From Sedimentisphaerales bacterium (GTDB lineage Bacteria; Planctomycetota; Phycisphaerae; Sedimentisphaerales; Anaerobacaceae), in contig JAXGYC010000015.1 in NCBI GenBank assembly GCA_040772485.1, forward strand, positions 26,090 to 90,089: a DNA stretch of 64,000 nucleotides, in the 5' to 3' direction. The notes under the pieces were generated by a model. The model had not been told where the DNA came from, searched no databases, and saw nothing but the letters and a program-made list of their open reading frames with translations. Within the stretch, counting starts at the first letter, position 1, and each line of letters begins with the position of its first letter. Both the position numbers and the translations under genes were made by a program. Below, piece by piece: positions 1,724-40,771 of the stretch.

Positions 1724-3349
1724 ATGCTGACCGGGGAATGCCATACGTTGCTGGATATCTGCGGGCCGGACATCTACAGCCGCAACGCCTTTCGATTGCT
1801 CGCAGCGGACGTCGACGCCACCGGACGAAAGATCAAGCGGAACGAGGCGGAACTCCAGTCCGCTCTCGAGGTGGGCGACCTGGCGGAGGAATACGGTGAG
1901 TTTCTCCGGCCCGATCCCCTGCCGAGCCGCGAGGAACTCCTTCAGGCCGGCCGGGTATTGGCAGACGCCAGGCAGCGATTCGTGCACGAGTTTTTCTGGT
2001 TCTGGCCGCTCCAATGGGGCCAAAGCCATGCCGACGAGGCGCTCAAGTGTGTGCAGGCCAACCAGGTGAGCGAAGCGCAGAGGCAATGGGAGGACCTTGC
2101 CGGCGGCGACGGCGAAGCCTCCTGGGCCGCCCGGCACAACCTGGCGATCCTGGGGCACTGGAAGGCGCTGGATCAGGAGCGAGAGATTCTGACGTCGATC
2201 AACCTTGGTGGGTTGCCAGAACAGACCCGCCGGCAGTTCGATTCCCACTGGGACTTCGCCTTTAGGTACTGGGAATCGCTCTGCGCCAACGAGGAATTCT
2301 GGTCGCTTCTGGCCGACCGGATTGGCGCGCTGAACGATCCGCGTCTGACCGTGGGATTTCTGCGCGACTTCTCCCAGTGGCTGCCCATCGCGTTTGACAA
2401 CATCAACGCCGACCTGGCGGTGGCTTATTGCGATCGCCAGATGTACGACCGGGCGCGAGACCACATCCGGATCATGAAGGCGACGAACGCGGGGCACGAC
2501 GACGTCGACGCCAGTCTGCGGCGCGTGACCAGACCGCTCAACGGCCGCATCGACCATGCCATCGAAACGGCCACCTACCAACTGCACAACAACAAGACCG
2601 CCGGAAAGCAGCGCTGCATCGAGCTGTTCAACACGGTCGGTCACATCCTGGATGTTCTCGAGGTGCTGCTCGGCAGCGAATCGCAGGAGTTCACCGAGAC
2701 GTGCGACCGCGTGGCCGAGAGCATGCTCCAATGCCAGGTCGTCTACGGCAACGAGACCCAGGACTGGGCCAGTTCGCTCGAACTGCTGGACACCACGCTG
2801 CAGATCGCCCGCGGAAGCCGGATGCGCGCCCGCCTCGAAGAGAACCTCGAAATCGTGCGCCAGAACCGACAGGGGGACCTCTGCTGGTTCTGCGAAAGCT
2901 GCCCGAAGGAGAACGAACACGCCGTCCCGGTGCCGTTGAGGAAACCCGTCACGTGGGCGGACGTCAAGAGCAATCCGGCGTTGTACCGCGACGCCATCCT
3001 TGTGACCGCCGGACGGTTGCACTTGCAGTTCTCCGGCGGCCTGACCGGTCCGATGGACCCCATGGGAATGATCGTCGTCCCGCAGTTCAGGAGAGCAATC
3101 GACAGCGGAGATATTCACGCCATCGTGCGCGCCGTTGATCCGTACATCCAGGACTCCGTCGAGGTGACGAGCCAGCCGCTGACGATGCTGGTTCCCCGAT
3201 GCCATACGTGTGCGGCCGTCCATGCGGGATCCGCCGCCGGCGGACGCGGAGAACGAGTGAAGACAGGCAACACCAGACCGCTGGACCACCTCCAGTTGTG
3301 GCCCGACGTCGTCAAGGCCAAACAGGACGGATTTCACGTTGTCGCGTAG
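1724..3349 (+). CDS. Hsp70-associated helical protein with degenerate J-domain-like N-terminus and Cys-rich (Zn-binding?) C-terminal region
   Basis: GAGGAG RBS. N-terminus YSRNAFRLLAADVDATGRKIKR...RPDP...EELLQAGRVLADARQR resembles J-domain helices; TPR-like middle; CWFCESC and PRCHTCAAVH motifs. Confidence 0.6.
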   Translation: MLTGECHTLLDICGPDIYSRNAFRLLAADVDATGRKIKRNEAELQSALEVGDLAEEYGEFLRPDPLPSREELLQAGRVLADARQRFVHEFFWFWPLQWGQSHADEALKCVQANQVSEAQRQWEDLAGGDGEASWAARHNLAILGHWKALDQEREILTSINLGGLPEQTRRQFDSHWDFAFRYWESLCANEEFWSLLADRIGALNDPRLTVGFLRDFSQWLPIAFDNINADLAVAYCDRQMYDRARDHIRIMKATNAGHDDVDASLRRVTRPLNGRIDHAIETATYQLHNNKTAGKQRCIELFNTVGHILDVLEVLLGSESQEFTETCDRVAESMLQCQVVYGNETQDWASSLELLDTTLQIARGSRMRARLEENLEIVRQNRQGDLCWFCESCPKENEHAVPVPLRKPVTWADVKSNPALYRDAILVTAGRLHLQFSGGLTGPMDPMGMIVVPQFRRAIDSGDIHAIVRAVDPYIQDSVEVTSQPLTMLVPRCHTCAAVHAGSAAGGRGERVKTGNTRPLDHLQLWPDVVKAKQDGFHVVA

Positions 3350-3373
3350 GGGCGAATGATTATTCGCCCCTAC
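3346..3373. repeat. GTAG-type REP palindrome, family A
   Basis: gtaggggcgaatgattattcgcccctac; its TAG is the stop codon of 1724..3349. Confidence 0.9.
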
Positions 3374-3391
3374 TTCGAGGAACAGACGGCT

Positions 3392-3889
3392 ATGCGAAAA
3401 TCCACGCGATCGAGAAGCAAAAGAGCCAAGGCCCAGAAGAAGAACGAACCTCGCGGCACAACGCAAAGCCGTCACTCGTCGCTGGTCGCTCGTGGCCCGA
3501 GCGACCAGCGACCAGCGACGAGCGACGGGCCGCCAGACGCTCGCGAGTTGCTCGGTCCGCTGGCGGAAATCGCGACCAACGCCTGGCGGCTGAAGGTCCG
3601 CATGATCGACGCCGAGACGGGCGAGCCGAAAGAGCAAACCAGCAAGCTGTACCGCTTCGTCGAGGGACTGTTCCGGGCGCTGGACGAGGCGGGCATTGCG
3701 GTGGTCGACAAAACGGGAAAGCCCTACGACGAAGGCATGCCGGAGAAGGTTATCAGCTTCGAGCAGACGCCGGGCCTGGCCAGAGAGGAAATCATCGATA
3801 CCGTCCGCCCCACCATCCGCTGGAGAGAGCGCCCGCTCTCCAACGGCGAGATCATCGTGGGACTGCCGGTCATTGGTAGGGGCGAATGA
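3392..3889 (+). CDS. GrpE-like nucleotide exchange factor (truncated type)
   Basis: C-terminal GrpE beta-domain pattern GIAVVDKTGKPYDEG...IIDTVRPTIRW...GEIIVG directly upstream of Hsp70. ATG 3392 follows GAGG; the N-terminus carries a repeat-derived segment. Confidence 0.75.
   Translation: MRKSTRSRSKRAKAQKKNEPRGTTQSRHSSLVARGPSDQRPATSDGPPDARELLGPLAEIATNAWRLKVRMIDAETGEPKEQTSKLYRFVEGLFRALDEAGIAVVDKTGKPYDEGMPEKVISFEQTPGLAREEIIDTVRPTIRWRERPLSNGEIIVGLPVIGRGE
3475..3526. repeat. Heptamer (GCGACCA) hairpin tract inside the GrpE-like CDS
   Basis: 3492-3520 matches 15282-15310 at 28 of 29 nt; both encode GPSDQRPAT. Confidence 0.8.
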
Positions 3890-3903
3890 TGATTCGCCCG
3901 TAC
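3876..3903. repeat. REP family A copy
   Basis: gtaggggcgaatgatgattcgcccgtac; contains the GrpE-like stop codon. Confidence 0.9.
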
Positions 3904-3967
3904 TCCTTTCGGCCTCAGAGGACCGAAGGGACCAAAAGGACCTGAGGCGAATGAGAAAGGGATAGAC

Positions 3968-6439: not shown

Positions 6440-6448
6440 CGGGAGCAT

Positions 6449-7306
6449 ATGTCGGTGACAATGGTCTATGCCGGCCTGACGGACGTCGGGCGAATGCGAG
6501 AGACGAACGAGGATGCGTTCGGCATTGATCGTCAGCTCGGGCTGATGGTCGTCGCAGACGGTCTGGGCGGTCATCCGGCCGGCGAGGTAGCATCGACGTT
6601 CGTCGTCGAGGCGCTGCCGCGCCAACTGGCGATGGGACGTGCCGCCGGCCTGGAGGATGCTCGGGGCCCCGCGCAACTCCTGAGCCAGTCGTTGCTGATT
6701 GTCGCCGAACAGCTTCGTGACATGGGACGTGCGAGGCCGGAACAGGAAGGCATGGGCGCGACAGTCGTGGCCGCCCTGGTCAGCGATGCGGCGCTTCTGG
6801 TCGCCCATCTCGGCGACAGCCGGGCCTACCGGCTTCGCGATAGCCAACTGGAACTGCTGACACGAGACCACAACCTCGGCAATGCCCTGCGCGACGAGGG
6901 CGTGGTCCACGATGGGGCCGAGGACATCCCGGAATACCACGTGCTGCGCCGGTTCGTGGGGATGGACCAGCCGCTGCCGCCGGACGTCGGGACGTTCGAC
7001 CTCCGGCAGCGCGACCGCTATCTGCTGTGCACCGACGGCCTGACGAACATGCTCAGCGAAGCGGAGATCTCCGAGATCCTGGGCGCCGATGCGCCCTGCG
7101 AGGAGCTTTGTCGCCAGATGGTGTCGCGGGCGAACGAGGCCGGCGGATACGACAACATCACCGCGATCGTGGCCCAGGTGCAGTCCGTGCGCGCCGACCA
7201 GGCATCGCCCGGCAAGGTGGCACAGACGATCGCTTCGTTGGACCCGGAGGAATCACTCAGGGAAGGGCGAATGAGTATTCGCCCCTACTGCACGGGGCAT
7301 CATTGA
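6449..7306 (+). CDS. PP2C/PPM-family Ser/Thr protein phosphatase
   Basis: TDVGRMRETNED, VVADGLGGH, MGAT, HLGDSRAY, LLCTDGLT, GGYDNIT motifs. Confidence 0.95.
   Translation: MSVTMVYAGLTDVGRMRETNEDAFGIDRQLGLMVVADGLGGHPAGEVASTFVVEALPRQLAMGRAAGLEDARGPAQLLSQSLLIVAEQLRDMGRARPEQEGMGATVVAALVSDAALLVAHLGDSRAYRLRDSQLELLTRDHNLGNALRDEGVVHDGAEDIPEYHVLRRFVGMDQPLPPDVGTFDLRQRDRYLLCTDGLTNMLSEAEISEILGADAPCEELCRQMVSRANEAGGYDNITAIVAQVQSVRADQASPGKVAQTIASLDPEESLREGRMSIRPYCTGHH
7262..7288. repeat. REP family A copy (in PP2C 3' end)
   Basis: gaagggcgaatgagtattcgcccctac, translated as GRMSIRPY. Confidence 0.8.
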
Positions 7307-7320
7307 AAGGATAAGCGGAT

Positions 7321-8430: not shown

Positions 8431-8447
8431 CGCTGTGGAAGATGAGA

Positions 8448-8550
8448 GTAAAGATCAAACAGCAAAATGGAAAGATGAGGAACTCATCCGCCGAAGGCGG
8501 ATACCGCCATTTTGATTCTTCCCTTTTGATCTTTGCTTTTTGCCTTTTGT
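8448..8550. repeat. AAAGATCAAA / TTTGATCTTTG inverted tract
   Basis: Same family as 32346-32451; purine-rich arm then pyrimidine-rich arm; may also act as a terminator/pause. Confidence 0.65.
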
Positions 8551-8573
8551 TGTAGTTTGCAGTGAGGTGATCC

Positions 8574-11500
8574 GTGTTCACAGAGAAAGCACAAGCGATC
8601 GTTTCCATGGCCAAAGATCGGGCCTACACGCTCGGACGGAATTGCATAGACGTCGAGAGCCTGCTGGCGGCCATCGCCTCCGACCGCCAGGCGTGTGTGC
8701 GGCTGGCGGAGTGCCTGACCGCCGGCAACGTCGCCGATCTGCGGCGGCGCTGCCCGCAGTTCGAGTCGCCGGGGTCGTGTCCGGGCACGATGCCGCCCGA
8801 TGAAGCGGTGCGTTTGCTCCTCGACAAGGCTTGCGAACTGGCGGGCGGGGAGGGAGTCCCCGACCGGACGCATCCGGGACTGGTGGGGTTGCCTCACCTG
8901 ATCTGTGCGGCCGCGATGTCGGTCGAGGTGGCAAGTCTGCTCGGCGATCCGATCGCGCCCATCGGCTCCAAACAGGCGATGAGTCTGCTGGCCCGCTGGG
9001 TGATGGACAGCGATACGAGCCTGTCGCTGGGCGAGCTGACCGGCCAGCTTCGCGGGCTGCGGGCGGCCCTTCTGGCGAGAGTATTCGGACAGGATCACGC
9101 GGTCCATGCCCTGGTCGAAGGGCTCTACAATGCGCAGGTGACCGCGGGCGCCGACCACGATCGCCGGCAGCCAATCGCCACGTTCGTCTTTGCCGGACCT
9201 CCCGGGGTCGGCAAGACCCACATGGCCGAACTGTGCGCCGCGCATCTGAAGCGTCCCTTCAAGCGATTCGACATGACCGCCTATAGCGACCACCAGGCCG
9301 ACAACCAGCTCGTCGGTTTTGCGCCGTCCTTTCAGGCCGCCAAGCCCGGCCTCCTGACGGGATTCGTCAAGCAGAATCCCAACGCCATCCTGCTGTTCGA
9401 CGAGATCGAGAAGGCGCATCTGAATACGATGCAACTGTTCTATCAGATCCTCGACGCCGGCCGACTGCACGACAAATTCGACGACGAGGACGTGTGCTTC
9501 CGCGACACGATCATCATCTTCACGACGAACGCCGGGCGGAGCCTCTACGAGAATCCCAACGCCAGCGGGATCTCCGCGGTCAACGCCGACTATCACAAGC
9601 GCACGATCCTCAGCGCGCTGGCGAACGAGAAAAATCCCACGACCGGCCAGCCGGCCTTTCCGCCGGCCATTTGCAGCCGGCTCGGGCAGGGCTATCCGCT
9701 GATGTTCAATCATTTGGGCATCAACGAGCTGGAACGCATCGCCGAGACGGAAATGACGCACACCGAGGCCCTGCTCGAACGGCAGTACTTCAAGACGTTT
9801 CGACACGATCCGATCCTGCCGATCCTGCTCGTGCTGCGATGCGGCGCGAGCATCGACGCCCGGCAGTTGCGCAGCGAGGTGGAGCGATTCGTCAAATCGG
9901 AACTGTTCAAGTTCTGTAGCCTCTACGAGTCGCAGCGCGTCGAAAAAGTGCTCGAGCAGATCGACGAGGTGCTCTTCACTGTCGATCCGGCCGAGATTCG
10001 GAATCACCCTGCGACGCAGAAACTCCTGTTCAATCCGGACAAATCGACTGTGCTCCTGGTGGCGGATGAGGCCTTCGCCTCGCGTTGTCGGGCGGCCCAT
10101 CCGGAGTTCGAGTGGATCGCGGCCGCGACGAAGGAAGAAGTGGTCAGTCAACTGGCTGCCCATGAAGTCAACATGATCCTGCTGGACTTGTGGGTCTCGA
10201 CGGGACACGATCGGGCCGGCGTAGGGGCGAATGATTACTCGCCCCTACCGAGCGCGGGCCGGATCGATCATCTCCCCTTGTCGGCCAGGGCCTTCGACAA
10301 CGGCCGGACGATCCTCCAGACGATTCGCAAGCGTTTCTCCGACGTCCCCGTCTACCTGCTGTCGTTCCAGACGCAACAGGCCGACGGCGCGACAAAGACC
10401 GTTTGCGTGGATGATCGGTACGACGCCACTGAGCGCCCCCACGACACGAAAAGGCCCCGGCCGATCGACGAAGAGCTGTTTCTCGCCTGCGTCCGAGCCG
10501 GCGGCGCCCGAGGGATGATCGCCACCGAGTACGACCGATCCTCAAAAACCGACCCCGGCGCGCCGGGATTCGCGGCGGCCCTTCAGGGGATTCTGCTTCG
10601 CCTGTTCCGCGAGAAGGTGGCCGCCGATCTCGCGCGGCAGCGCCAGTGCCTGGAGTTCGACACGGTCGCCCGCCTGAACGAGTCGGTTCGTCACCTGGGG
10701 ATCTCAACTCGCGGATTCCGGCTTCAGCGTGTCATCGAGGCCGAAGACGTGGTCGGCCTGGTCAGCGACGTGGAACGTCCTTCCACCCGCTTCGACGAAG
10801 TCTTCGGCGCGACCGCCGCGAAGAAATCGCTGGGCTTCGTGGTCGACTGGCTGAAGAACCGCAAGCGTTACGCGGGACTGGGGCTGCGCCCGCCCAAGGG
10901 CATTCTCCTGAGCGGCCCGCCCGGAACCGGCAAGACCATGCTCGCCCGGGCGGTCGCCGGAGAGTCGAATTGTGCGTTCATGGAGGAATCCGGCGGCAAC
11001 TTCATCACCAAGTGGCAAGGCAGCGGTCCGGAAAACGTGCGGAAGCTGTTCCAGCGGGCACGCAAGTACGCGCCCGCGATCGTATTCATCGACGAGATCG
11101 ACGCGGTGGGCAAGACGCGCAGCGGCGCAACCACCAGCGAGTCCCGCGAGACAACGCTCAACACCCTCCTGACGGAAATGGACGGGTTCGGGGCGACGGC
11201 GGACGCCCCGGTGATCGTGCTGGCGGCGACGAACCTGGCCGAGAAGCTCGACCCGGCGCTGAAGCGGCGTTTCGACCGCGAGATCAGGGTCGACGAGCCG
11301 GACCGGTCCGCTCGCCTGGCGTACCTGCAACAGGCGATCGGAAAGCTCTCGAAATCCGAGGTCGGCGCCGAGACTCTCGAAGCGATCGCCAACCAGAGCG
11401 TATACATGACCATCGCCGACCTGGCCCGCGTCGTCCAGGAAGCCGGCGTGATGGCGGCGCTGGCCGGATCGACCATCACCGACAGCATCCTGCTCGAGGC

Positions 11501-12146
11501 GTTCGAGAAGCAGCGCATGGGCGAAGCCCTGCCCTGCACGAACCAGGCAAAGCTGCTCCGCATCGCCCGCCACGAGGCGGGACACACGCTGGTGGCGTGG
11601 AAGAGCGGCACGCCGGTCCATCAGGTCACGATCGTCGGCCGCGGCGGGGCCGGCGGTTACATGGAACGCAAACACGACGACGACCGCGACCTGCAAACCA
11701 AGGAAGATCTGCTTCGTGATATTCGCATCTCCATGGCGGGTCGCGCGGCGGAACTGGTCTGCTATGGCCCGGACGCGGGTCTGAGCATCGGCGTCGGCGC
11801 GCCCCGAGCCATCGGCGGTGGAGGCGGCGACTTGCCCAACGCATCGCAGAAGGCGATCCAGATGGTTCGCGTCTACGGCATGGACGAGGAGATCGGACAA
11901 TTGGCGCTCGATGAGCTCTTCGTCGAAAACAGCCAGCGCCCGCTCGCCGAACAGACCCTTATGCTGGCCGAGAGGATCGTGTCGGAACAACTGGACGTCG
12001 CCAGGAAGCTCATCGAGACCCATCGCGACGAATTCGATCGCCTGGTCGATGCGCTGGTCAAACACAACCGGCTGGATGAGGCCCAACTGAACGAGCTGCT
12101 CGGCGAACAGCTCCCGCTCGTCTCTGAGGTCTCTTCAGTCCCTTAG
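8574..12146 (+). CDS. Soluble multidomain AAA+ protease: Clp-N + ClpA/B D2-type AAA + receiver-like domain + FtsH-type AAA + peptidase M41
   Basis: GTG start after GAGGTG. VFGQDHAV, GPPGVGKT, LLFDEIEKAH, LDAGRL, IIIFTTNAG (Clp D2); VLLVAD...ILLDL...PVYLLS (REC-like); GPPGTGKTMLARAVAGE, IVFIDEIDAVG, LLTEMDGF, VLAATN...LDPALKRRFDR (FtsH AAA); HEAGH Zn motif. No TM helices. Confidence 0.9.
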   Translation: MFTEKAQAIVSMAKDRAYTLGRNCIDVESLLAAIASDRQACVRLAECLTAGNVADLRRRCPQFESPGSCPGTMPPDEAVRLLLDKACELAGGEGVPDRTHPGLVGLPHLICAAAMSVEVASLLGDPIAPIGSKQAMSLLARWVMDSDTSLSLGELTGQLRGLRAALLARVFGQDHAVHALVEGLYNAQVTAGADHDRRQPIATFVFAGPPGVGKTHMAELCAAHLKRPFKRFDMTAYSDHQADNQLVGFAPSFQAAKPGLLTGFVKQNPNAILLFDEIEKAHLNTMQLFYQILDAGRLHDKFDDEDVCFRDTIIIFTTNAGRSLYENPNASGISAVNADYHKRTILSALANEKNPTTGQPAFPPAICSRLGQGYPLMFNHLGINELERIAETEMTHTEALLERQYFKTFRHDPILPILLVLRCGASIDARQLRSEVERFVKSELFKFCSLYESQRVEKVLEQIDEVLFTVDPAEIRNHPATQKLLFNPDKSTVLLVADEAFASRCRAAHPEFEWIAAATKEEVVSQLAAHEVNMILLDLWVSTGHDRAGVGANDYSPLPSAGRIDHLPLSARAFDNGRTILQTIRKRFSDVPVYLLSFQTQQADGATKTVCVDDRYDATERPHDTKRPRPIDEELFLACVRAGGARGMIATEYDRSSKTDPGAPGFAAALQGILLRLFREKVAADLARQRQCLEFDTVARLNESVRHLGISTRGFRLQRVIEAEDVVGLVSDVERPSTRFDEVFGATAAKKSLGFVVDWLKNRKRYAGLGLRPPKGILLSGPPGTGKTMLARAVAGESNCAFMEESGGNFITKWQGSGPENVRKLFQRARKYAPAIVFIDEIDAVGKTRSGATTSESRETTLNTLLTEMDGFGATADAPVIVLAATNLAEKLDPALKRRFDREIRVDEPDRSARLAYLQQAIGKLSKSEVGAETLEAIANQSVYMTIADLARVVQEAGVMAALAGSTITDSILLEAFEKQRMGEALPCTNQAKLLRIARHEAGHTLVAWKSGTPVHQVTIVGRGGAGGYMERKHDDDRDLQTKEDLLRDIRISMAGRAAELVCYGPDAGLSIGVGAPRAIGGGGGDLPNASQKAIQMVRVYGMDEEIGQLALDELFVENSQRPLAEQTLMLAERIVSEQLDVARKLIETHRDEFDRLVDALVKHNRLDEAQLNELLGEQLPLVSEVSSVP
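10221..10248. repeat. REP family A copy (in frame in AAA protease)
   Basis: gtaggggcgaatgattactcgcccctac = VGANDYSPL. Confidence 0.9.
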
Positions 12147-12165
12147 GTCCTTCAAAACCCAAGGG

Positions 12166-12343
12166 CGGGTGGCAGCCTCAAACGCGCCAGCGTTTGGGGA
12201 TGGTGGAACGCGAAGGAAGTCCCGCGACGCCCGTACGGCCCACGCAGGGGCGAATGATTATTCGCCCGTACTCCGCCATCCCTAAGGCTTCGCTGCGTTG
12301 CGCTCCGTTCGGCTTTGCTCAGGACAAGCTTTGAGGCTGCCAC
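12166..12343. repeat. Composite inverted-repeat element (GGGTGGCAGCCTCAA arms) enclosing other repeat units
   Basis: Arms cgggtggcagcctcaaa / tttgaggctgccac; inner gggatgg/ccatccc; holds a REP-A copy and a ttcggctttgctcaggacaagctt unit. Confidence 0.8.
12244..12271. repeat. REP family A copy
   Basis: gcaggggcgaatgattattcgcccgtac inside the composite element 12166..12343. Confidence 0.85.
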
Positions 12344-12362
12344 GCGGCGGATCCGGCAATTC

Positions 12363-12391
12363 TTGTGCTCTGCGCCGACTCATGCTATCTT
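12363..12391 (+). promoter_or_regulatory. Possible sigma70 promoter for the lipoprotein/DUF748 pair
   Basis: TTGTGC-N17-TATCTT with extended -10 TG. Confidence 0.4.
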
Positions 12392-12455
12392 ATGGAAAAG
12401 ACATGGCGGGCGCCCGCCGTGGCAACGACCATGGGGATGCAGATCTGAGACAAAC

Positions 12456-13958: not shown

Positions 13959-13975
13959 AATCACAGGAGCATCCC

Positions 13976-16900
13976 GTGCGGCACAAAGACAGAAAACGCA
14001 AGTCATTCTCGGACCATCCAGACAAGCGGCAGGCCGCGGTAGGGGCGGATAATTATTCGCCCGTAGCCGCCCCCGCCACAGGCGGATCGGAAACGGATCA
14101 GCCCGCCGGCGGACCACCCCAGCAGCGGATCGAACAAGAGGCGGGCCACCATCACCGTTGGCTCCGGCGTCTGTTCTGGGCCGGTGTAATCCTGGCCGCC
14201 GTGATTGTGGTCCTGCGGATTGCGCTGTGGTTGTCTCTGCCGTGGATCATCGACAAGACGATGGAGCAGTACGGCCTGAACGCGCGATACGAACGATTGA
14301 ATCTCTCCCTGCTCACCGGAGACGCAGAACTGTGGCATCTGGTTCTCGTGCCGACCGACGCCAACACGCCATTTGCGGATGTTGAGTACTGCCGGGCGGC
14401 GGTCTCTCTGGTGACGTTGTTTACACGTCGGCTCATCGTCCGCCGCGTCGAGATCGACGGAATGGATGTCAATCTGACCCGGGCCCAGGATGGGACGTTT
14501 CCCCAACTGCGAACCCTGCTGACCGTCCTGCGTCAGCGCAGCAAGGCGGCACAGCCGACCGATACCGCGGCGGCCCCGACCGCGGCGTCGCCGGGGCAGA
14601 TCGATCTGACGCCGCCGCTCCAGATGGATGCGCTGAGACTTCAGCACGTGCAGTTGCAGTTTCGAGACGAGACTGTGGAGCCGGTCTTTGAGACGCAGTT
14701 GGATCTGAACGTGCGTCTTTCCGACCTCCGATCCGACAAACGCAAGACACGGTTCCAGATCCTCCTGTCGTCTCCTCCCGTGCTGGACCAGCTTCAGATC
14801 GACGGGACCGGCTCGGCCGAAGGGCGCGACCTCCTGGCGGAAGTCCACGTCGCCCTCCAGGGTCTGCATCCCGACGCGGTGAAGGATTACCTGGCCGATC
14901 TGGGACTCGTTCCCGATGCGCGCAATCTGGCGCTGTCCTGCAGCGGATCCGTCCGCGTCCAGGGGATCGAGGTGATGGACGTCAACGATGCAGGCCCGGT
15001 GATCGACGAGACACTTTCGCCGAACGAGATCGCGACGGCCCCTTCGTCTGCCACACTCCAGGTTCAGCTCGAATCGAAGAACACGACCGTGACGATCGAC
15101 GGCGCGGAGCATTTCGTTCTGGAGCACGCGGCGGTCGACGCGAACGTCGCGGACTCGGGCGCCATTCGGGCGGGACGGATACAGATCCGTGGGGGCGCGT
15201 TCCACGCCTGGAGGAGGCCGGCCGGCGCGCTTTCGGTCGGCGGTTTCCAGTTCACCCGGCGCCCGCGGCCGGAGCCGACGAGTGGCCCGAGTGACCAGCG
15301 ACCAGCGACGCCTGCCCCGAGCGAAGTCGAGGGGAGCGACGGCTTTGCGTGGTCCCTCGACAGCGTGGAGGTGCGGGACGTGCGATTGCTGCTGCACGAT
15401 CAGTCGGTGTCACCACAGGCTGATCTGGCGCTGGACCTCAACGACGTGACGGTCCGCAGCGCCGCCTCCGATCAGGAAGGATTGACGCTGACCGCTCGTT
15501 TGGGGGCGCCGGGCGTCGTCGAGAGCCTCCAGACCCAGGGGACCGTGGTTCTGTCGTCTTCCCAAGGCAGCGCAGCGCTCAAGATCTCTGGCACGGGAAT
15601 CCGCCCGGACGCCTTGCAGCCGTATCTCGAAGGGCTCGGCCTGGAGTCTCTCTACACCGGCGGGACATTCTCGTGTGACGTGAACGCGACGTTCACCAAT
15701 CAGCCGAATGAACCCATCGGGGCGTCCGGGGCCATCACGAATATCCACTTGCAGGACACCGAAGAGCTGTTCGGCCTCAAGACCATCGGCGTTCAAGGGG
15801 CCAGGATCGACCCGGTTACCGGGGCAACGCACATCGATCAGGTTGAGATCTCCGGACAGCGTCTGGCGGTCGCGCGGGACGGAGAAGGCTGCTTGGCCAC
15901 TCTGGGCTTTCGCCTCGTCGGCCGCACGTCCGAGCCAGCGCCGCACCAAGCCGAGAGCATGGAGGCAGTCCAAGAGACCCGGACCCCATCGACTCTCGGC
16001 GCACATCGGACGAAGACCGCCACGATTGAGATCGGGCGGTTGAGCTGGCACGACAATGAACTGACTTTTGTGGATCGCATGGTCACGCCCGCCAAGACGA
16101 TCGCGGTGCCGGACCTTGGCTTTGAACTGACGAACCTTGTCCTGGGAGGTGATCCCAACGCTGCATCGCCGGCATCGGTGAAGGCATGGCTGCGCAGTCC
16201 GGGAACCATCGAGACCGTCCAGTTGAGCGGCTCGGTTGCGCCCGAGCCGGCCGGGCTGTCCTTCGACCTGGACCTGCGTGGCGAAGGTCTGGCTCTGGTG
16301 GCGATGGCGCCTTACCTTGCGGCTCTTGGGACCGAGTCTGTCATGACAGAAGGCAGTGTGGCCGCCCGGACGAAGGGACGCATCACATGGGGAATCGACG
16401 GGCTCCATTGCTCGGCGACGATCCGCGATGCGGCTGTCAGGGACGGCGCCGCCGAGTTGGCAGGACTTGACCAGATCGAGATCGCACAGCTCCATCTGGC
16501 CGCCACAGGTTTCCAGGTGGAGCGCATCATGCTCGAGCGTCCACGGCTGATGCTGTCGCGCGACGAATCCGGCGTATTTGCCTGCGCGGGCCTGCGTATC
16601 GTCCCGGGGCAGAAGACCGAGACAGAGGCCTCGCCAGAGCCGGTCCGGCCCGTGCGTGTGGGTCGGCTGGAAATGAAAGGCGCCCAGATTCAGTGGTCCG
16701 ATCACGCCGTGACGCCGGCGGTATCCCAGTCTGTGGGGATCGACCTCGCCCTGAGCGAGCTTGCCCTCGGAGTTGAATCGCCTCCGACGACGATCAGCGC
16801 AACCGTCAGGGCCCCCGGCATCGCGCAGCAGGCCACCGTGACCGGACAGCTTCAGATAACGCCGTCAAAACAGGGAGCCGACCTGACGCTGGACGCGGCA

Positions 16901-19507
16901 GGCGTCAATGCAGGACCGTTGCTGAGCTACCTGCCGCCGGCCGTCAGACCGGCCCTGGAGCAAGGGCAACTCCACGCCCGAATCACCGGCGAGCTGACCG
17001 CGCATCCCGAAGGGGGCCGGCGCATCCGCGCCAGCGCAACCGATGTCGATTACCGCGGGGATTCCGAGCCGGAGCCTTTCCTGCGATTCGATTCGGCCGA
17101 ACTGGCCGTCGATCGCTTCGACCCGAACGCACACTTGATCTCCATCGAGCAGGTATCGCTCCAGGGTCTTGAGGCCACCGTCGAACGCAAGGCTTCCGGC
17201 CTGATGAGCCTGCTCGGATTTGACTTTAGCGCTTCTGAGTCGGCCTCCACCGACGCGTCTGGCACGACGGATGAACAGCGGGGTCTCACACCTTCTGCCA
17301 GCGAGGAACCGTCGGCGGCCCAACAGACCGTGCCCGATCAGGCGCCGGGCCTTGCGAGCGCCGTCGCACGGAAGGCCCGGCGGCTGCCGCTGGTTGTCCT
17401 CGATCGATTGTCGTTGGAGGCCAGCAAACTCACCGTGAAGGATGCCGCCAGGCCGGCGGCGACACCCTTGGTCATCTCGAATTTGAAGGTGGCCAATACC
17501 GAGACCGTCAAGCTCCTTGGCGATGAGCCGGACACCAATCCGCCCGTCAAGATCGATGTCCACGGCCAGATTGAGCCTTTGACCGAGTCTCTGGCGCTGA
17601 AGATCGAGGTGTCTCCCTTCATCGCCCAGCCCCAGATTCTCGCCGAGTGGGACATCACGCAGATCCAAGGCCCGGGATTGGTTTCCATCCTGCCGGAGGT
17701 CCGCAGCGCAGTGGATGCCAACAACCTGCACACCGGCAGGTTCTCCGGGACCGCGCAATTGACGCTGCACGTGGAGCGACGCGACGTCGCAGAATTCGAC
17801 TTCAGCAGACCTTTTGGCGTAGATGCGTGGGTCAAGGCGATGGCCTTCCGTGACGCGCAGACGGACACCGTGCTGGCGGGAGTCGAGGAACTGCGGATCG
17901 TGGCGCCAAAAGTGGATTTGGACAGCGGCAGCGTTCACGTCAAGGAGATCGGCCTGGTGAATCCGCAGGGGGCGATCCGGCGGGAAACGGACGGATGGCA
18001 TCTGCTCGGAATGACCTGGAAAACGACCGCGAAGGGGCGATCCGCCGATGCGAATGCGGTCGCGTCGGCCAATCCGCAATCCCCAATCCACAATCCACAA
18101 TCCGCGTTCGACCTGCGCGTCGATCAGCTCCTGGTGACGGGCGTCGATTTCGCTCTCGTCGACAACACGGTCGAGCCCCCGATGTACGTACCCCTGAAGG
18201 GCCTGGACGTGGAGGTTCGCGGATTCGCCACAGCCGGCGCCGACGTCAAGACCCCGATGCGATTCAACGTGGTTGCGACGGCCGGGGAGGTGCCGTTGCC
18301 GCAGACGAGGCGCAGCTCCGCATCCGCCTCCGATGAGCCGGCCGATTTGCCTCTGGCGGACATCGAGGACTCCTCGGAGCCTTCGACGATGGAGAATCGC
18401 CTGCTGTTTCAGGAGCTGTCGGCCACCGGACGCCTGACCCTCTATCCGCGTCCCGACGGCTGGGTGAAGGCCGGCCTGAGCGGACTGGAGCTGGTCAATT
18501 TCAGGGGCGTGGCCAGCGAGAGCGGCTTGACCCTGCGCAAAGGCGTTTTCGACGCCAGCGTGGACATGCGGTTCCACAAGGATCAGCCTCTCTCGACGCG
18601 GGCCCGGCTGGTCTTTACGGACCTGTCGCTGACGGAGCCGCCCGATGGCTTTCTGGCGCAGCTTCTGACTTTGCCGGCGTCTCTGGACACGGTGCTCTTC
18701 ATTCTCCGGGACGCGGGCGGGTCCATTCGGCTGCCGCTGTCGTTCAAGATCGACGAGGACGGCCTCTCGCGCGGCCAGATTACGCAGGCGGCTGTGGGAG
18801 CGGCCGCGACCCTCATCGCCGGCGCCGTAGCAGGTTCCCCCTACCGGGTCGCCGGAACGATCGGCAATATCCTGGGCGGGGACAAGGAGGAAACCAGCGG
18901 CGCGGAAACCTACGTCGTGGAGTATGCCGCCGGCATCACCACCCTTTCCGATCGCCAGGCCGCAGAACTGGCGCAGATCGCCGAGCGTCTGCGCAATGAA
19001 CGAGACCTGGCGGTTACGGTTCGCCACCACCTGGGCGCCGTAGACATCGAAAAGGCCGCCGGCCTGGTCAACCTGTCAGAGCCCCAGACGAAGGCCCTGT
19101 TGGCGAGGCTGCGCCAGGAAAGGACCGAACTGAGGCGACGCAGAGACGAACTGGCAGGCCAGACTCGTGCGGCCTATGCCGCAGGCTCCCGCGGGAATGT
19201 GACGACCAGGACAAGGCAATTGCAGCAAACCGAGACACAACTGGGTCTGATCGAGCAGGCTCTGGACAATCTCCTCGAGACGATGCGTCCCGGCTCGGAG
19301 TACGCCGTAAGAAGACGCACGCAGGATGCCTGCATTGCCATTGGCAAGGCGCGCATCGAAACGGTGGCGGCGCTTCTGGCGATCGAGCCGGCCGCAGACG
19401 GACCGGAGGCATCCGGACGCGTCACGTTCGTGCCGCCCCGCTTCACGGAAGCCGGCGATCCCGCAGGCCGGATCACCCTTACGCTCTCCAAGAGCAAGGC
19501 GAGGTGA
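13976..19507 (+). CDS. Giant AsmA/DUF748-like envelope protein with N-terminal TM anchor and OmpA-like C-terminus
   Basis: AGGAG RBS, GTG start. TM LFWAGVILAAVIVVLRIALWLSLPWI; repeated modules ending in L.G....(A/P)YL; C-terminal ILRDAGGSIRLPLSF and YAAGITTLSDRQAAELAQIAERL. Confidence 0.75.
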   Translation: MRHKDRKRKSFSDHPDKRQAAVGADNYSPVAAPATGGSETDQPAGGPPQQRIEQEAGHHHRWLRRLFWAGVILAAVIVVLRIALWLSLPWIIDKTMEQYGLNARYERLNLSLLTGDAELWHLVLVPTDANTPFADVEYCRAAVSLVTLFTRRLIVRRVEIDGMDVNLTRAQDGTFPQLRTLLTVLRQRSKAAQPTDTAAAPTAASPGQIDLTPPLQMDALRLQHVQLQFRDETVEPVFETQLDLNVRLSDLRSDKRKTRFQILLSSPPVLDQLQIDGTGSAEGRDLLAEVHVALQGLHPDAVKDYLADLGLVPDARNLALSCSGSVRVQGIEVMDVNDAGPVIDETLSPNEIATAPSSATLQVQLESKNTTVTIDGAEHFVLEHAAVDANVADSGAIRAGRIQIRGGAFHAWRRPAGALSVGGFQFTRRPRPEPTSGPSDQRPATPAPSEVEGSDGFAWSLDSVEVRDVRLLLHDQSVSPQADLALDLNDVTVRSAASDQEGLTLTARLGAPGVVESLQTQGTVVLSSSQGSAALKISGTGIRPDALQPYLEGLGLESLYTGGTFSCDVNATFTNQPNEPIGASGAITNIHLQDTEELFGLKTIGVQGARIDPVTGATHIDQVEISGQRLAVARDGEGCLATLGFRLVGRTSEPAPHQAESMEAVQETRTPSTLGAHRTKTATIEIGRLSWHDNELTFVDRMVTPAKTIAVPDLGFELTNLVLGGDPNAASPASVKAWLRSPGTIETVQLSGSVAPEPAGLSFDLDLRGEGLALVAMAPYLAALGTESVMTEGSVAARTKGRITWGIDGLHCSATIRDAAVRDGAAELAGLDQIEIAQLHLAATGFQVERIMLERPRLMLSRDESGVFACAGLRIVPGQKTETEASPEPVRPVRVGRLEMKGAQIQWSDHAVTPAVSQSVGIDLALSELALGVESPPTTISATVRAPGIAQQATVTGQLQITPSKQGADLTLDAAGVNAGPLLSYLPPAVRPALEQGQLHARITGELTAHPEGGRRIRASATDVDYRGDSEPEPFLRFDSAELAVDRFDPNAHLISIEQVSLQGLEATVERKASGLMSLLGFDFSASESASTDASGTTDEQRGLTPSASEEPSAAQQTVPDQAPGLASAVARKARRLPLVVLDRLSLEASKLTVKDAARPAATPLVISNLKVANTETVKLLGDEPDTNPPVKIDVHGQIEPLTESLALKIEVSPFIAQPQILAEWDITQIQGPGLVSILPEVRSAVDANNLHTGRFSGTAQLTLHVERRDVAEFDFSRPFGVDAWVKAMAFRDAQTDTVLAGVEELRIVAPKVDLDSGSVHVKEIGLVNPQGAIRRETDGWHLLGMTWKTTAKGRSADANAVASANPQSPIHNPQSAFDLRVDQLLVTGVDFALVDNTVEPPMYVPLKGLDVEVRGFATAGADVKTPMRFNVVATAGEVPLPQTRRSSASASDEPADLPLADIEDSSEPSTMENRLLFQELSATGRLTLYPRPDGWVKAGLSGLELVNFRGVASESGLTLRKGVFDASVDMRFHKDQPLSTRARLVFTDLSLTEPPDGFLAQLLTLPASLDTVLFILRDAGGSIRLPLSFKIDEDGLSRGQITQAAVGAAATLIAGAVAGSPYRVAGTIGNILGGDKEETSGAETYVVEYAAGITTLSDRQAAELAQIAERLRNERDLAVTVRHHLGAVDIEKAAGLVNLSEPQTKALLARLRQERTELRRRRDELAGQTRAAYAAGSRGNVTTRTRQLQQTETQLGLIEQALDNLLETMRPGSEYAVRRRTQDACIAIGKARIETVAALLAIEPAADGPEASGRVTFVPPRFTEAGDPAGRITLTLSKSKAR
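14039..14066. repeat. REP family A copy (in frame in DUF748-like gene)
   Basis: gtaggggcggataattattcgcccgtag = VGADNYSPV. Confidence 0.85.
18071..18105. repeat. Heptamer tandem repeat (AATCCNC x5) inside a CDS
   Basis: aatccgc aatcccc aatccac aatccac aatccgc = NPQSPIHNPQSA. Confidence 0.85.
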
Positions 19508-22481: not shown

Positions 22482-23456
22482 ATGGCCAATCGCCATAGCA
22501 GTCCGTCGTCCAATCCGTCGCCGATGAGTCGGCGCGAGATGATGTCCATGTCCCTGGGAACCGCTCTTGCCCTGGGCACAACGGCGCTGACGCCGCACCG
22601 CGCCGCGGTAGGGGCGAATAATTATGCGCCCGTACTCCAGCCCGGCAAGCCGACGCGCAAGCCCATCTTCAAGTCTCTCAAGTTCGGCATGATCGAAGGC
22701 GACATGTCCATTCTCGACAAGTTCAAGCTGGTCCAGGACCTCGGCTACGACGGATTGGAGCTGGATTCGCCGGGCGGGCAGGACAAACAGCAATGTCTCG
22801 AGGCCAGCCGGAAGACCGGCCTGCCTATCCATGGCGTGGTCGATTCTCGACACTGGTCCGTGCGCGCCACCGAAGCCGACCCCAAACGGCGGCAGGAGTG
22901 CCTCAACGATCTGCTGACCGCGATCAAGGAGTCTCACTATTGCGGCGGCTCGGCTGTGCTGTTCGTCCCGGGCCATGGCAACGACGGTCCCGAGAGCGAG
23001 ATCGTCCCGCGCTCGCTTGACGTGATCGGCCAGGCGTTGCCGACGGCAGCCAAACTGGGGATTCGCATCCTCATCGAGAACGTGTGGAACCGGATGTTCT
23101 ACGACCACGACGGCGCCCCGGAGCAGGGAGCCGAACGCTACGCCGCCTTCATCGACGCCTGCCGCAGTCCGTGGGTGGGCGCGTACTACGACATCGGCAA
23201 CCACCACAAGTACGGCCGGCCCGAGCAGTGGGTCCGCACGCTGGGCACGCGGATCGTCAAGCTCGACGTCAAGGGCTACAGCCGCGAAAAGAACAACTGG
23301 TGCGAGATCGGTGACGGCACAATCGACTGGCCCGCGGTCCGCGAGGCGCTGGACGAGGTCGGCTTCACCGGCTGGTGCACCGCGGAAGTCGGCGGAGGAG
23401 GCCGCGAGCGGCTGGCCGACATTCTCGCCAGATTGAATCGCGTGTTGCCGAATTGA
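22482..23456 (+). CDS. Tat-exported sugar-phosphate isomerase/epimerase (xylose-isomerase-like TIM barrel)
   Basis: SRREMM signal; GYDGLEL, ILIENVWN, YYDIGNH, KLDVKGY, GDGTIDWPAV, CTAEV motifs. Confidence 0.9.
   Translation: MANRHSSPSSNPSPMSRREMMSMSLGTALALGTTALTPHRAAVGANNYAPVLQPGKPTRKPIFKSLKFGMIEGDMSILDKFKLVQDLGYDGLELDSPGGQDKQQCLEASRKTGLPIHGVVDSRHWSVRATEADPKRRQECLNDLLTAIKESHYCGGSAVLFVPGHGNDGPESEIVPRSLDVIGQALPTAAKLGIRILIENVWNRMFYDHDGAPEQGAERYAAFIDACRSPWVGAYYDIGNHHKYGRPEQWVRTLGTRIVKLDVKGYSREKNNWCEIGDGTIDWPAVREALDEVGFTGWCTAEVGGGGRERLADILARLNRVLPN
22608..22635. repeat. REP family A copy (in frame in isomerase gene)
   Basis: gtaggggcgaataattatgcgcccgtac = VGANNYAPV. Confidence 0.85.
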
Positions 23457-23496: not shown

Positions 23497-23524
23497 GTAG
23501 GGGCGAATCATGATTCGCCCTTAC
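23497..23524. repeat. REP family A copy
   Basis: gtaggggcgaatcatgattcgcccttac; overlaps the TAA stop of 23521..24900(-). Confidence 0.85.
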
Positions 23525-24900: not shown

Positions 24901-25002
24901 GGCCAATCCCTCTACACGAAGATCCAAATCCGGCCAGCCGGAGTCTACCGGCGCAGGCCGGCTTCGTAAAGGGCTGTAGGGTGTCGGACTGCCGGTCATT
25001 TG

Positions 25003-29631: not shown

Positions 29632-29677
29632 AGCCAACTCCTCTCAAAGAGACCCTGCCTTGCAGCGACACCATCCC

Positions 29678-29705
29678 GTAGGGGCGAATAATCATTCGCC
29701 CCTAC
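29678..29705. repeat. REP family A copy
   Basis: gtaggggcgaataatcattcgcccctac followed by aggctaccaccc. Confidence 0.9.
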
Positions 29706-29815
29706 AGGCTACCACCCGGCGAATCCGGGCGCTGTAGCCTTTCACGCTACCCAGCGCAGGTCTGCGCCGTCAATAGGGAAAACGCCGCACGGTGGCCCGT
29801 TGAGGGACCGGTCAG

Positions 29816-29843
29816 GCAGGGGCGAATAATCCTTCGCCCCTTC
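29816..29843. repeat. REP family A copy (degenerate)
   Basis: gcaggggcgaataatccttcgccccttc. Confidence 0.75.
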
Positions 29844-29897
29844 GGGCAGATCGGTTTGCAGTGTGTCCGCAAGGACACAGAACGCCTCACGGCGTCA

Positions 29898-31166: not shown

Positions 31167-31293
31167 CGCGTTCCGCGCATCGTGATACGGATACGGCTGC
31201 GGCAACACGCTCGGCGTCGCCTCATCTCTGTCGGACTTCTTCGCAGACCTGCTCAAAACCCATGCTCCTCCATTCGGATGCGCGGTGCCGTTG

Positions 31294-32304: not shown

Positions 32305-32345
32305 GGTGCAGCTCTCCTCGGACTCCACGTTTCCGATTGCGGATT

Positions 32346-32451
32346 CAAAAGAAGATCAAATATCAAAAAGCAAAGATCAGAATAGCGGAATCGCCGCAAC
32401 GCGGCGATGACTTCCTCAATTTTGCATCTTGCTCTTTGATCTTTGCATTCC
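32346..32451. repeat. AAAGATCAAA / TTTGATCTTTG inverted tract
   Basis: aagatcaaatatcaaaaagcaaagatcag ... ttttgcatcttgctctttgatctttgc around a central atcgccgc/gcggcgat hairpin. Confidence 0.65.
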
Positions 32452-32463
32452 CACAAGATGCTT

Positions 32464-33585: not shown

Positions 33586-33617
33586 GATCTTGCCTTCCCA
33601 AAAGTCACTGCGGCGCT

Positions 33618-35153: not shown

Positions 35154-35180
35154 AGAACCTGCTCCGAGATCGACCCGATG

Positions 35181-36164: not shown

Positions 36165-36247
36165 CTTCGTCTCCTTAAGAGCATTTCCAAAAATATCGTC
36201 ATATCCGATTGGTCGCCGGAAGGTTCTGCGGTCCCGGCGTATTGCCT

Positions 36248-37567: not shown

Positions 37568-37653
37568 AGTACCTCCTTCGTTCGATCTGCCTGTCCTGGA
37601 CCGGTGTTTCCGTATCGAATCAAGGTCTCCTGTAGATTGCGCCTGCGCGGGTT

Positions 37654-37682
37654 ATGATACGCCCTGAGTCACCCAAATTCAA
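37654..37682 (-). promoter_or_regulatory. Sigma70-type promoter for 36248..37567
   Basis: Minus strand TTGAAT-N17-TATCAT. Confidence 0.65.
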
Positions 37683-37763
37683 GTCGCAGCCCATGTAGGT
37701 CGTAGGTCCTCGCACAACAGCCCAAAGACGAGCGGAGAGGTTCACCCTCAAGGCAGTATGGCG

Positions 37764-39146: not shown

Positions 39147-39244
39147 GGTGGCTCCCTTTCCCTTTGGTCTGAGGTCTCGAAGGCAAACGCCGCCGGCCTC
39201 GAAGGGTCCAGGACCGGCGGCGCATCGGCTGCCATGTGATGATA

Positions 39245-40621
39245 CTACACGAATTCCTGGTACTCGCGGTCCTTCAGCACGCCCGGCTGCGGCAGCGGAT
39301 ACCGGCCCTCGGCGTCCGATTTCAGCGGCGCGGGCGAGTCCATCGTGAACTTGTCGGCGTCCGGGGCGAACTCGTGCTGGCAGTTGAGCATCTGATCGTA
39401 CGTGATGACGTTGCCGGTGTGGGCGGCCATGCGGCCCATCGACGTCACCATGCTGGCGATCGCGCCGCGTTCGGTCTCGTTGTAGGGCTTGTCGTTTCGA
39501 ATGGCGTCGATCAGGTCGTCCCATTCGAGCTGATACGGACTGGGCTCGGGCTGCGGGAAGCTCCAGATGAGGTTCTCGCGGGCCATCTTCTGATCGCTGT
39601 ACGTGCGGACGCGGCCGGGCGTGTGGCTGGACGTCGAGACGACCCCCGAGCCCTTCGTGCCGTGGACGAAGCTGCTGAAGGCATTCTCGCAGCCGTCCAT
39701 GTTCCGACCGTCGTAGAAGAACCGGGTGCCGTCGTCGAAGACGTACTCGACCGAGTAATTGTCGAAATTCTGATCGACGGACTCGCCGCGGAAGTGTCGC
39801 GCGCCGATGGCGCGGGCCTCGACGGGCCAGGAGCCCTTCATCCACGAGCACTCGTCGATCTGGTGGATATAGAAATCGCTGTAGACGCCGCCGCTGCCCC
39901 AGAGGAAGCTGTGGAAGCTGCGAACCTGGTAGAGCAGCTCGCTGATGTTGCCCCGCCTCGGACGGGCGTTGGCGGCGCGGCCGCCCATGCGGTAGGCCCG
40001 CATCATGTGGATCTCGCCGATCTCGCCCGACTCGATGCGCTTCTTCAGCTCCTGCCGGCCCCGGCAGTGGCGGATCATCAGGCCCACGCCGACCTTGAGG
40101 TTCTTGGCGTCGGCCTTTTTGGCCAGCTCGATCATCCGCTTGGTGGTCGGGCCGTCCACGGTGACGGGTTTTTCCATGAAGACGTTGATGCCCTTCTCGA
40201 TGGCGTAGGTCAAGTGCACCCAGCGGAACGCCGGCGGCGTCGCGAGGATGGCCACGTCGCCCGGACGCAGGCAGTCCATCGCCTTCCTGTAGCCGTCGAA
40301 GCCGACGAACTTGCGCTCGTCGGGCACATCCATCTGGGCGGCCCGGTCGTTCTGGAGCCCTTTGAAGCTGCGGTCCACGCGGTCGGCGAACACATCCGCC
40401 AGCGCGACGAGCTTCGTCCGTCCGTTCGGGACCGACAGGGCGTTCTGGGCGGCGCCGGTGCCGCGACCGCCGCAACCCACCAGGGCCACCTGGATCGTGT
40501 CGTTGCCGGCGGCGTACAGGCTCGAACCGAGCCCGCCGACCAGCGTGGTGGCCGCAGCGATCCGACCGGTGTTCTTCAGGAATTGGCGGCGTGACGTCTG
40601 TTGGCTCGTGGTTTGTCTCAT
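39245..40621 (-). CDS. Tat-exported Gfo/Idh/MocA oxidoreductase (tandem copy 2)
   Basis: SRRQFLKN; VGCGGRGTGAA; VFMEKPV; IHQID. Confidence 0.92.
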   Translation of the reverse strand: MRQTTSQQTSRRQFLKNTGRIAAATTLVGGLGSSLYAAGNDTIQVALVGCGGRGTGAAQNALSVPNGRTKLVALADVFADRVDRSFKGLQNDRAAQMDVPDERKFVGFDGYRKAMDCLRPGDVAILATPPAFRWVHLTYAIEKGINVFMEKPVTVDGPTTKRMIELAKKADAKNLKVGVGLMIRHCRGRQELKKRIESGEIGEIHMMRAYRMGGRAANARPRRGNISELLYQVRSFHSFLWGSGGVYSDFYIHQIDECSWMKGSWPVEARAIGARHFRGESVDQNFDNYSVEYVFDDGTRFFYDGRNMDGCENAFSSFVHGTKGSGVVSTSSHTPGRVRTYSDQKMARENLIWSFPQPEPSPYQLEWDDLIDAIRNDKPYNETERGAIASMVTSMGRMAAHTGNVITYDQMLNCQHEFAPDADKFTMDSPAPLKSDAEGRYPLPQPGVLKDREYQEFV

Positions 40622-40743
40622 GGTGGGTCTTCTCCTACTTGCCTGGTGTGCGGCGGACAATGCTTCGGTCGTTACATGGAAATGCCGGTCCGATGTGCCG
40701 GACCACCCCCATCAGCTCCTCCGTCATCCCCGTGACATGGCCC

Positions 40744-40771
40744 GTAGGGGCGAATGATTATTCGCCCCTAC
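40744..40771. repeat. REP family A copy
   Basis: gtaggggcgaatgattattcgcccctac followed by aggctgccaccc. Confidence 0.9.

Follow-up and report, generated by a model that had tools for sequence, protein, structure and literature searches.

Two published accounts of palindromic repeats come closest to the element described here. Quentin 2018 (BMC Genomics 19:475, PMC6006769) defined subclass 2.4 of the TnpA-Y1 transposases, equivalent to Bertels group 4, which is characterized by the motifs NH[IFV]H, WQ and YIxNNP, a length of ~194 aa and a patchy spread across phyla, and whose repetitive extragenic palindromic (REP) sequences are 'long' and 'double foot', with 5′ GT[AG]G and 3′ C[TC]AC. For GTAG REPs inside other genes, that study cites Di Nocera 2013 (BMC Genomics 14:522, PMC3733652), in which GTAG palindromes were reported from Planctomycetes–Verrucomicrobia–Chlamydiae bacteria and Chloroflexi; some were located inside known genes with the frame kept, many at N- or C-termini, and loops were thought to be tolerant, while the short elements RPE-4 and RPE-6 were filed under CGTC repeats, not GTAG. 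The present analysis concerns a 28 nt palindrome that recurs in a 64,000 nt stretch (the window; C15:26090-90089) of the genome of a Sedimentisphaerales bacterium (GenBank GCA_040772485.1, contig JAXGYC010000015.1; designated here as G000; 5.84 Mb, 63% GC, 41 contigs). We consider it very probable that this 28-mer is a double-foot REP of the TnpA-REP/REP-associated tyrosine transposase (RAYT) subclass 2.4, that a Y1 enzyme moves its copies and that the copies surviving inside genes are those that preserve the reading frame.

At a threshold of three mismatches or fewer, the 28-mer GTAGGGGCGAATNATNATTCGCCCCTAC / GYAGGGGCGAATNNNNATTCGCCCNTAC was found at exactly 11 window sites (3346, 3876, 7261, 10221, 12244, 14039, 22608, 23497, 29678, 29816 and 40744), with 0–3 mismatches on the better-matching strand, whereas 100 dinucleotide-preserving shuffles yielded no match; the eleven copies listed in a preliminary description of this DNA were thus all recovered. 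The repeat folds as a hairpin whose 12 bp stem opens with 5′ GTAG, encloses a 4 nt NATN loop and closes with 3′ CTAC; its consensus as single-stranded DNA has a predicted free energy of −13.4 kcal/mol (z=−8.7). Loop positions 13 and 16 are free to vary, and pairing is not required there. Each strand has a single open frame, frame two containing TAG and frame three usually TGA, so that a translated copy inside a gene must read VGANxxSPL. A search of the window against Rfam gave no family match.

A genome-wide count and in-gene fraction, put forward as a check in the preliminary description, were obtained directly from the assembly. With five mismatches or fewer allowed over the 24 defined positions, 176 copies of this type (designated here as GAAT type) were identified, including 16 perfect and 44 one-mismatch copies; the reversed consensus gave none. 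Genes were called with our own codon log-odds model trained on long open frames (4352 genes, 86.7% coding). Relative to these calls, 88 copies are intergenic, 43 overlap a stop codon, 7 overlap a predicted start and 38 (~1/5 of copies) are located inside a predicted gene. The GTAG REPs of Di Nocera 2013 were described as mostly extragenic and downstream of genes. The in-gene share (38/176) is high for a REP; 32 of the 38 are in the open frame, and 17–21 lie deep within genes with same-frame coding signal on both flanks. Intergenic copies are situated between tandem (58), convergent (8) or divergent (21) neighbours. Across all copies, the repeat supplies the gene end through the TAG of its foot in 30 cases and through the TGA of its loop (GAATGA) in 8.

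Canonical GTAG and/or CTAC feet were observed in 139 of the 176 copies (both in 36, one in 103), the remaining 37 displaying the variants GCAG, GTAC or GTGG. Sibling stem variants are also present, namely GGGCGAGG-CATG-CCTCGCCC (~56 copies), GGGCGACG (n=14) and GGGCGAAG (n=7), and the repeat superfamily totals 208 copies in the genome, of which 176 are of the GAAT type (reversed control, 0). The possibility that REPs act as boundaries of cargo was rejected, as the genes between neighbouring REPs are ordinary and unrelated to one another. With regard to stop codons in this genome, TAG accounts for 32% of all stops, and the base before it is strongly biased: 731 genes have G there, 464 have A, 158 have T and only 24 have C (CTAG avoidance).

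Of the 12 other species in the genus, 11 contain the exact core, at 5–120 copies each; among 28 genomes from other genera of the family and order, it was detected in only one, as a single copy. A scan of 185,579 species genomes revealed at least 120 loci carrying the identical full 28-mer, feet included; taxa among the listed loci comprise Dehalococcoidia, Bacteroidales, Desulfacinum, Pirellulales, Patescibacteria, Geomonas and others. The identical GAAT-type REP was found in frame in other phyla, as exemplified by a Flavobacteriales RAYT (L041:4161-4706; VGANNYSPR), and in-frame GAAT-type copies were further identified in a 472 aa Bacteroidales protein (L014:5381), a protein of a 33% GC genome (L080:3564) and an amino-acid permease of an Omnitrophota genome (L122:1913).

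The Flavobacteriales locus, with its GAAT-type copy inside a RAYT-like gene, provided the lead to a transposase in the present genome. A homologue was sought, and a RAYT-like Y1 HUH gene was located on the minus strand at ~C15:245216-245785, i.e. on the same contig, close to its end and ~155 kb past the window. No Y1 transposase gene was found within the window itself, as the preliminary description had stated. The encoded protein (189 aa) contains the motifs NHVH, WQ and YVEANP, and its gene forms a REPtron (C15:245181-245828, locus L176, at the contig end) that is directly observed in the assembly: sibling GAGG-type REPs (GGGCGAGGCATGCCTCGCCC) flank the gene at 245181 and 245801, and a further GAGG-type REP is positioned in frame within it at 245488 (RARHASPL), 8 residues past the NHVH histidine pair. 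The protein matched NF047646, the NCBIfam model for REP-associated tyrosine transposases, with an E-value of 3.6e-16.

A PDB sequence search with this protein gave no match. In its AlphaFold model (predicted local distance difference test score of 82), the REP-encoded stretch is represented by a low-confidence loop, and comparison of the model with the PDB returned only Y1 HUH transposases in the top 30, with 4ER8, the Escherichia coli RAYT bound to a REP hairpin, at rank 2 (E=1.9e-6, template modelling scores of 0.52/0.59). The modelled fold of the enzyme is thus that of a Y1 HUH transposase.

The homologue family is very large (at least 7907 matches). In most of the best 120 homologues, the same position is occupied by one to four peptides encoded by REPs, whose type varies with the clade (VGATHASPL, VGARHASPL, VGANNxSPL or VGARHAVPL), and the Y motif of relatives reads YIEANP/YIRDNP. 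Within the genus, the GAGG-type RAYT gene was found in G000, G003, G004 and G009, while a paralogue with an internal GAAT-type REP is encoded by G012 (L172:1501-2118) and G002, G012 also bearing GAAT-type copies just downstream of the gene; seven genomes of the genus have neither type. The assignment of the palindrome to the RAYT-associated REPs, made in the preliminary description, was in this way corroborated, both by a RAYT that is flanked by and contains sibling REPs and by the GAAT type in the G012 and G002 paralogues.

A Pfam PF01797 search of the genus, which overlooked the subclass 2.4 gene, had indicated a RAYT-like pair at C9:135227-137625; this pair was rejected as the cognate enzyme, no REP or shared hairpin being present nearby. 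In other phyla, no PF01797 match was found near the REPs. The pair consists of near-identical 237 aa genes (C9:135227-135937 and C9:136915-137625) that lie 1.7 kb apart on either side of a membrane-protein gene, score 60.9 bits against NF047646 and exhibit an HVH motif and RYVERNPVRA. A third Y1-like domain was noted inside a 1256 aa open frame at C28:28454.

Comparison with subclass 2.4 as described in PMC6006769 revealed the same 5′ GT[AG]G and 3′ C[TC]AC feet, a long G+C-rich hairpin, a patchy distribution that spans phyla, an enzyme of ~190 aa with NH[IFV]H and WQ, an in-frame internal REP in the enzyme and REPs within ±1 kb, although the latter are here of the GAGG sibling type. Differences concern the host (Sedimentisphaerales of the Planctomycetota, whereas mainly Cyanobacteria and Bacteroidetes are named in that paper), the Y motif (YVEANP versus YIxNNP), the association of the resident gene with the GAGG variant and not the GAAT variant, and the high share of stop-donating copies, which was not reported in PMC6006769. 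The system fits subclass 2.4 on all testable features except the variant Y motif. With the GTAG REPs of Di Nocera 2013, the repeat shares a palindrome of 20–40 bp, a stem-loop, a GTAG end and many dispersed copies; however, the tag is there unpaired and at one end, whereas here it pairs within the stem, the opposite end being closed by its complement. The stem GGGCGAAT was not found in the text of PMC3733652.

The E. coli TnpA-REP (PDB 4ER8) and the TnpA proteins of IS608 and ISDra2 have the Y1 HUH fold that is predicted for the present RAYT, and by analogy the latter may likewise recognize a hairpin on single-stranded DNA and use a tetranucleotide at the hairpin foot as a cleavage or guide site. 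Unlike the repeat described here, the REPs of E. coli contain a bulge, have a single foot and lie essentially outside genes, and in IS608 and ISDra2 the element's own transposase is enclosed by two ends that differ from each other. Rickettsia palindromic elements are ~100–150 bp long and add 30–50 residues to the proteins that contain them; they are not known outside Rickettsia, nor is any RAYT known for them. The present repeats resemble them as palindromes that persist in frame within protein genes and add peptide segments, yet are 28 bp long and reside in a member of the Planctomycetota, so that the parallel with Rickettsia drawn in the preliminary description holds for behaviour and not for family.

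The presence or absence of individual copies was read directly from congener DNA: syntenic sequences from G004, G012, G003, G002 and G006 were aligned at the window sites, and for the 88 non-intergenic sites of the genome the joined REP-less flanks were searched in G004, G012 and G003. Most copies, deep in-gene ones included, are common to the latter three genomes (28 nt difference from the REP-less query), and the flanks of species sharing in-gene copies are 85–98% identical. Approximately 20 of the 88 sites differ among relatives and were fetched and aligned. The in-gene length differences amounted to 12, 12, 15, 15, 18, 21, 21 and 21 nt, all eight being multiples of three (chance ~1.5e-4), as opposed to 1 of 12 at stop-overlapping and C-terminal sites, which independently supports a location of the in-gene copies within translated sequence.

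Furthermore, a GAGG-type copy at C14:180458 has no counterpart in any of the three close relatives, whose common sequence at this site is conserved and REP-free, indicative of a gain on the G000 line. Two tandem direct REP pairs, spaced 23–26 nt apart (C10:149272-149325 and C7:359270-359319), are represented by single copies in the closest relative, G004, suggesting copy-number change at existing REPs. One repeat arm was retained at three sites (7261, 10221 in G012, and C14:238120), which points to arm-loss deletions at these positions. A general retention of half REPs in REP-free alleles, through microhomology-driven replacement or universal arm loss, was rejected, as only 3 independent sites of 18 were significant against background, with the rest resembling it.

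By analogy with E. coli TnpA-REP and IS608/ISDra2, a Y1 HUH enzyme would bind the single-stranded hairpin at the replication fork and would cut and rejoin at the GTAG foot, thereby creating and removing copies. Within genes, selection would retain only length changes of 3n. Copies in tolerant loops, linkers and termini would survive, their translation adding ~9 residues (VGANxxSPL); near gene ends, copies in either of the other frames would become a stop codon through the element's own TAG or TGA. The chemistry at the hairpin is presumably that of the related enzymes, and it appears plausible that a RAYT serves the GAAT subfamily in this genome and that the encoded peptides are translated.

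A number of observations weigh against this account. The resident RAYT scores below curated cut-offs (PF01797, 20.3 versus 23 bits; NF047646, 59 versus 80 bits). No GAAT-type REPtron or RAYT was found in this assembly, where the only subclass 2.4 gene is tied to the GAGG sibling, and RAYT type did not correlate with GAAT copy number across 13 congeners: G003 and G004 each contain more than 100 GAAT copies without a GAAT-type RAYT, and G008 contains 60 without a RAYT of either type. No filled and empty allele pair differing by a clean 24 or 28 nt was obtained among the aligned sites, and precise cut-and-paste is therefore not seen. Finally, as genes were called with our own codon model, N-terminal in-gene cases are uncertain, notably 14039, which may lie upstream of the true start.

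It is quite possible, though on balance doubtful, that the copies are relics, the family having expanded in the ancestor of G000, G004, G012 and G003, with the GAAT-specific RAYT lost since and nothing added today; the copies would then only decay or serve the host, through mRNA 3′-end stabilization or termination. The missing GAAT-type RAYT, the sharing of most sites among G004, G012 and G003 and the arm-loss deletions agree with such a history, as do the 43 copies overlapping gene ends, with many more located within 50 nt downstream of them. In-gene copies are also more decayed than others, with none of 38 perfect as compared with 16 of 138 elsewhere and with fewer paired stem bases (9.8 versus 10.4, p=0.006). 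Conversely, the 16 perfect and 44 one-mismatch copies persist, at least one copy (the GAGG-type repeat at C14:180458) is missing from all three close relatives, tandem copies (sites 2 and 43) differ between G000 and G004, and the resident RAYT has an intact frame and motifs. Spread may continue today: most sites are old and shared, yet perfect copies and at least one lineage-specific gain are on record. The proposal in the preliminary description that active spread adds peptides to loops and linkers thus stands for the in-frame insertions and not for the activity, most in-gene copies being shared and slightly decayed.

Within the proposed subclass 2.4 system, the foot may be a landing site and not cargo, new copies being placed beside an existing GTAG in the way that IS608 inserts 3′ of TTAC, with G-preceded TAG stops as preferred targets and an element shaped to be harmless to reading frames; we regard this as unlikely. 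In line with such targeting, copies located exactly on a TAG stop make up 17%, which matches the ~18% expected from random GTAG hits with in-gene hits purged (731 G-preceded TAG stops versus 3334 intergenic GTAG/CTAC sites). In addition, the GTAG of an older copy at C10:149272 is immediately followed on its 3′ side by a newer copy, and the REP-free alleles at 3346 and C20:54654 retain GTAG or CTAC at the junction. Against it, the tetranucleotide was present in only 2 of ~14 clean empty sites, and no clean 24 nt difference was seen. The low rating reflects the thin junction evidence for GTAG targeting.

Three window copies, all on the plus strand, are in frame, and the translations assigned to them in the preliminary description proved correct. 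The first (10221..10248) encodes VGANDYSPL, residues 550–558 of a 1190 aa protein (gene 8574-12146), within the sequence ...DRAGVGANDYSPLPSAG..., and is flanked on the left and right by coding signal in one and the same frame. Its host is a single protein of ~1190 residues comprising AAA_2, a receiver-like segment, an FtsH-type AAA domain and an M41 peptidase. The copy is located ~12 residues past LLDLW of the receiver-like segment (a segment not called by Pfam), and 'receiver Asp' in the preliminary description was a fair term. Among 45 aligned homologues of this AAA+/FtsH-like host, the position corresponds to a loop after LLDLW that is hypervariable in both length and sequence, and distant homologues have an unrelated variable loop where the REP sits. 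The REP is present in G004 and G003, while G012 lacks it and reads DPPLAD there. The architecture of this gene, with its ClpB-like AAA_2 start, is conserved in Sedimentisphaerales, unusual and without an evident membrane anchor; Hsp70-like and PP2C genes precede it.

The second copy (14039..14066) encodes VGADNYSPV, residues 22–30 at the predicted N-terminus of a DUF748/AsmA-like protein (13976-19507; ...RQAAVGADNYSPVAAP...). Its left flank has no coding signal, and among the three copies it is the one whose position inside a gene is least secure. The REP is present in G004 and absent from G012 and G003 (each with a 21 nt length difference); G012 carries a separate REP ~40 nt upstream of the equivalent site (L131, G012:C54; 18 nt net difference). 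The N-terminal region of this AsmA-like gene has thus been hit by two independent REPs, in G000 and G012, within one short tolerant segment. The third copy (22608..22635) encodes VGANNYAPV (...HRAAVGANNYAPVLQPG...) between a signal peptide resembling those of the twin-arginine translocation pathway, SRREMM...ALALGTTAL, and a xylose-isomerase-like TIM barrel (22482-23456); it is shared with G004 and G003 and absent from G002 and G006 (18 nt difference). At none of these three sites do the REP-free relatives carry the peptide, which bears out its earlier interpretation as an insertion. Predicted host peptides spanning the junctions are ...DRAGVGANDYSPLPSAGR... and ...AAVGANNYAPVLQPGK....

It is highly unlikely that such in-frame copies merely reflect over-extended open frames of a 63% GC genome, with REPs located in untranslated leaders or between same-frame genes. 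Consistent with over-extension, the left flank of 14039 has no coding signal and 22608 only a weak one, several of the 'inside' calls fall in the first 50 codons, and predicted starts such as MIIRPY in the loop look artificial. However, the 10221 host is a single architecture of ~1190 aa across its 45 aligned homologues, at least 17 copies are flanked on both sides by same-frame coding signal, and all eight in-gene length differences are divisible by three. In-frame copies also occur in AT-rich genomes (L080, 33% GC; L041, 38% GC), where long frames are reliable. That VGANxYSPL is an old conserved peptide motif with secondary DNA likeness is suggested by peptide recurrence and nothing else, and is extremely improbable, given that these 28 nt recur across unrelated proteins, between genes and on either strand, that orthologues lack the peptide and that DNA identity extends to synonymous positions.

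The remaining window copies are located at gene ends or between genes. The degenerate plus-strand copy at 7261..7288, with a GGAA foot, was previously described as forming the C-terminus of a PP2C protein, and it indeed contributes GRMSIRPY to the final 15 codons of the PP2C gene (6449-7306): having lost its TAG, it is translated in another frame as ...EGRMSIRPYCTGHH, followed by the stop that ends this PP2C_2 protein. The REP is present in G003, and its right arm alone (TCGCCCCTGC) is left in G012 and G004. At 3346..3373, a perfect copy provides the stop of gene 1724-3349 through the TAG at its bases 2–4; the REP is shared with G004 and absent from G003, which has GTAG at the junction. The TGA in GAATGA of the copy at 3876..3903 ends the ORF 3356-3889, adding four residues; G012 has this REP, whereas G004 and G003 lack it and have a TGA of their own. 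As called, this ORF (177 aa) opens with an ATG belonging to one REP loop (MIIRPY...) and closes with the TGA of the following REP's loop; in relatives that lack these REPs, the gene persists and ends on a TGA of its own. A downstream ATG is the likelier start, and the one derived from the REP is probably artefactual, while the four-residue C-terminal extension is genuine.

The copy at 23497..23524 contributes the TAA stop of a minus-strand gene (23521-24927) through its minus-strand foot, GTAA, and G004 and G003 lack the REP at this site. Intergenic copies are found at 29678..29705 (perfect) and 29816..29843 (degenerate), which form a pair spaced 138 nt apart; at 40744..40771 (perfect), flanked by two minus-strand genes; and at 12244..12271, within a composite repeat downstream of gene 8574-12146. 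This composite repeat (12147-12320; GGGTGGCAGCCTCAAACGCGCCAGCGTTTGGGGATGG...) has 27 matches in the genome, including itself, and encloses the REP. A further repeat at 8431-8573 is AT-rich and ~100–140 bp long, with a central palindrome (CATCCGCCGAAGGCGGATAC) and the look of a miniature inverted-repeat transposable element; it has 16 blastn matches in the genome, including itself, and recurs in all congeners. Elsewhere, REPs abut AGGCTGCCAC arms, e.g. at 40772 and C7:574426.

As the element type, its transposase and in-frame insertion have already been published, the findings raise no new question of principle. They document a REP/RAYT system of subclass 2.4 in Sedimentisphaerales with unusually many stop-donating and putatively translated copies. 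Its effects on annotation include spurious starts such as MIIRPY or GEACLAPT, displaced gene ends and breaks in the assembly at the transposase. Recognition of the repeat helps to interpret odd nine-residue insertions in proteins of metagenome-assembled genomes, and its in-gene copies constitute a natural catalogue of insertion-tolerant protein sites.

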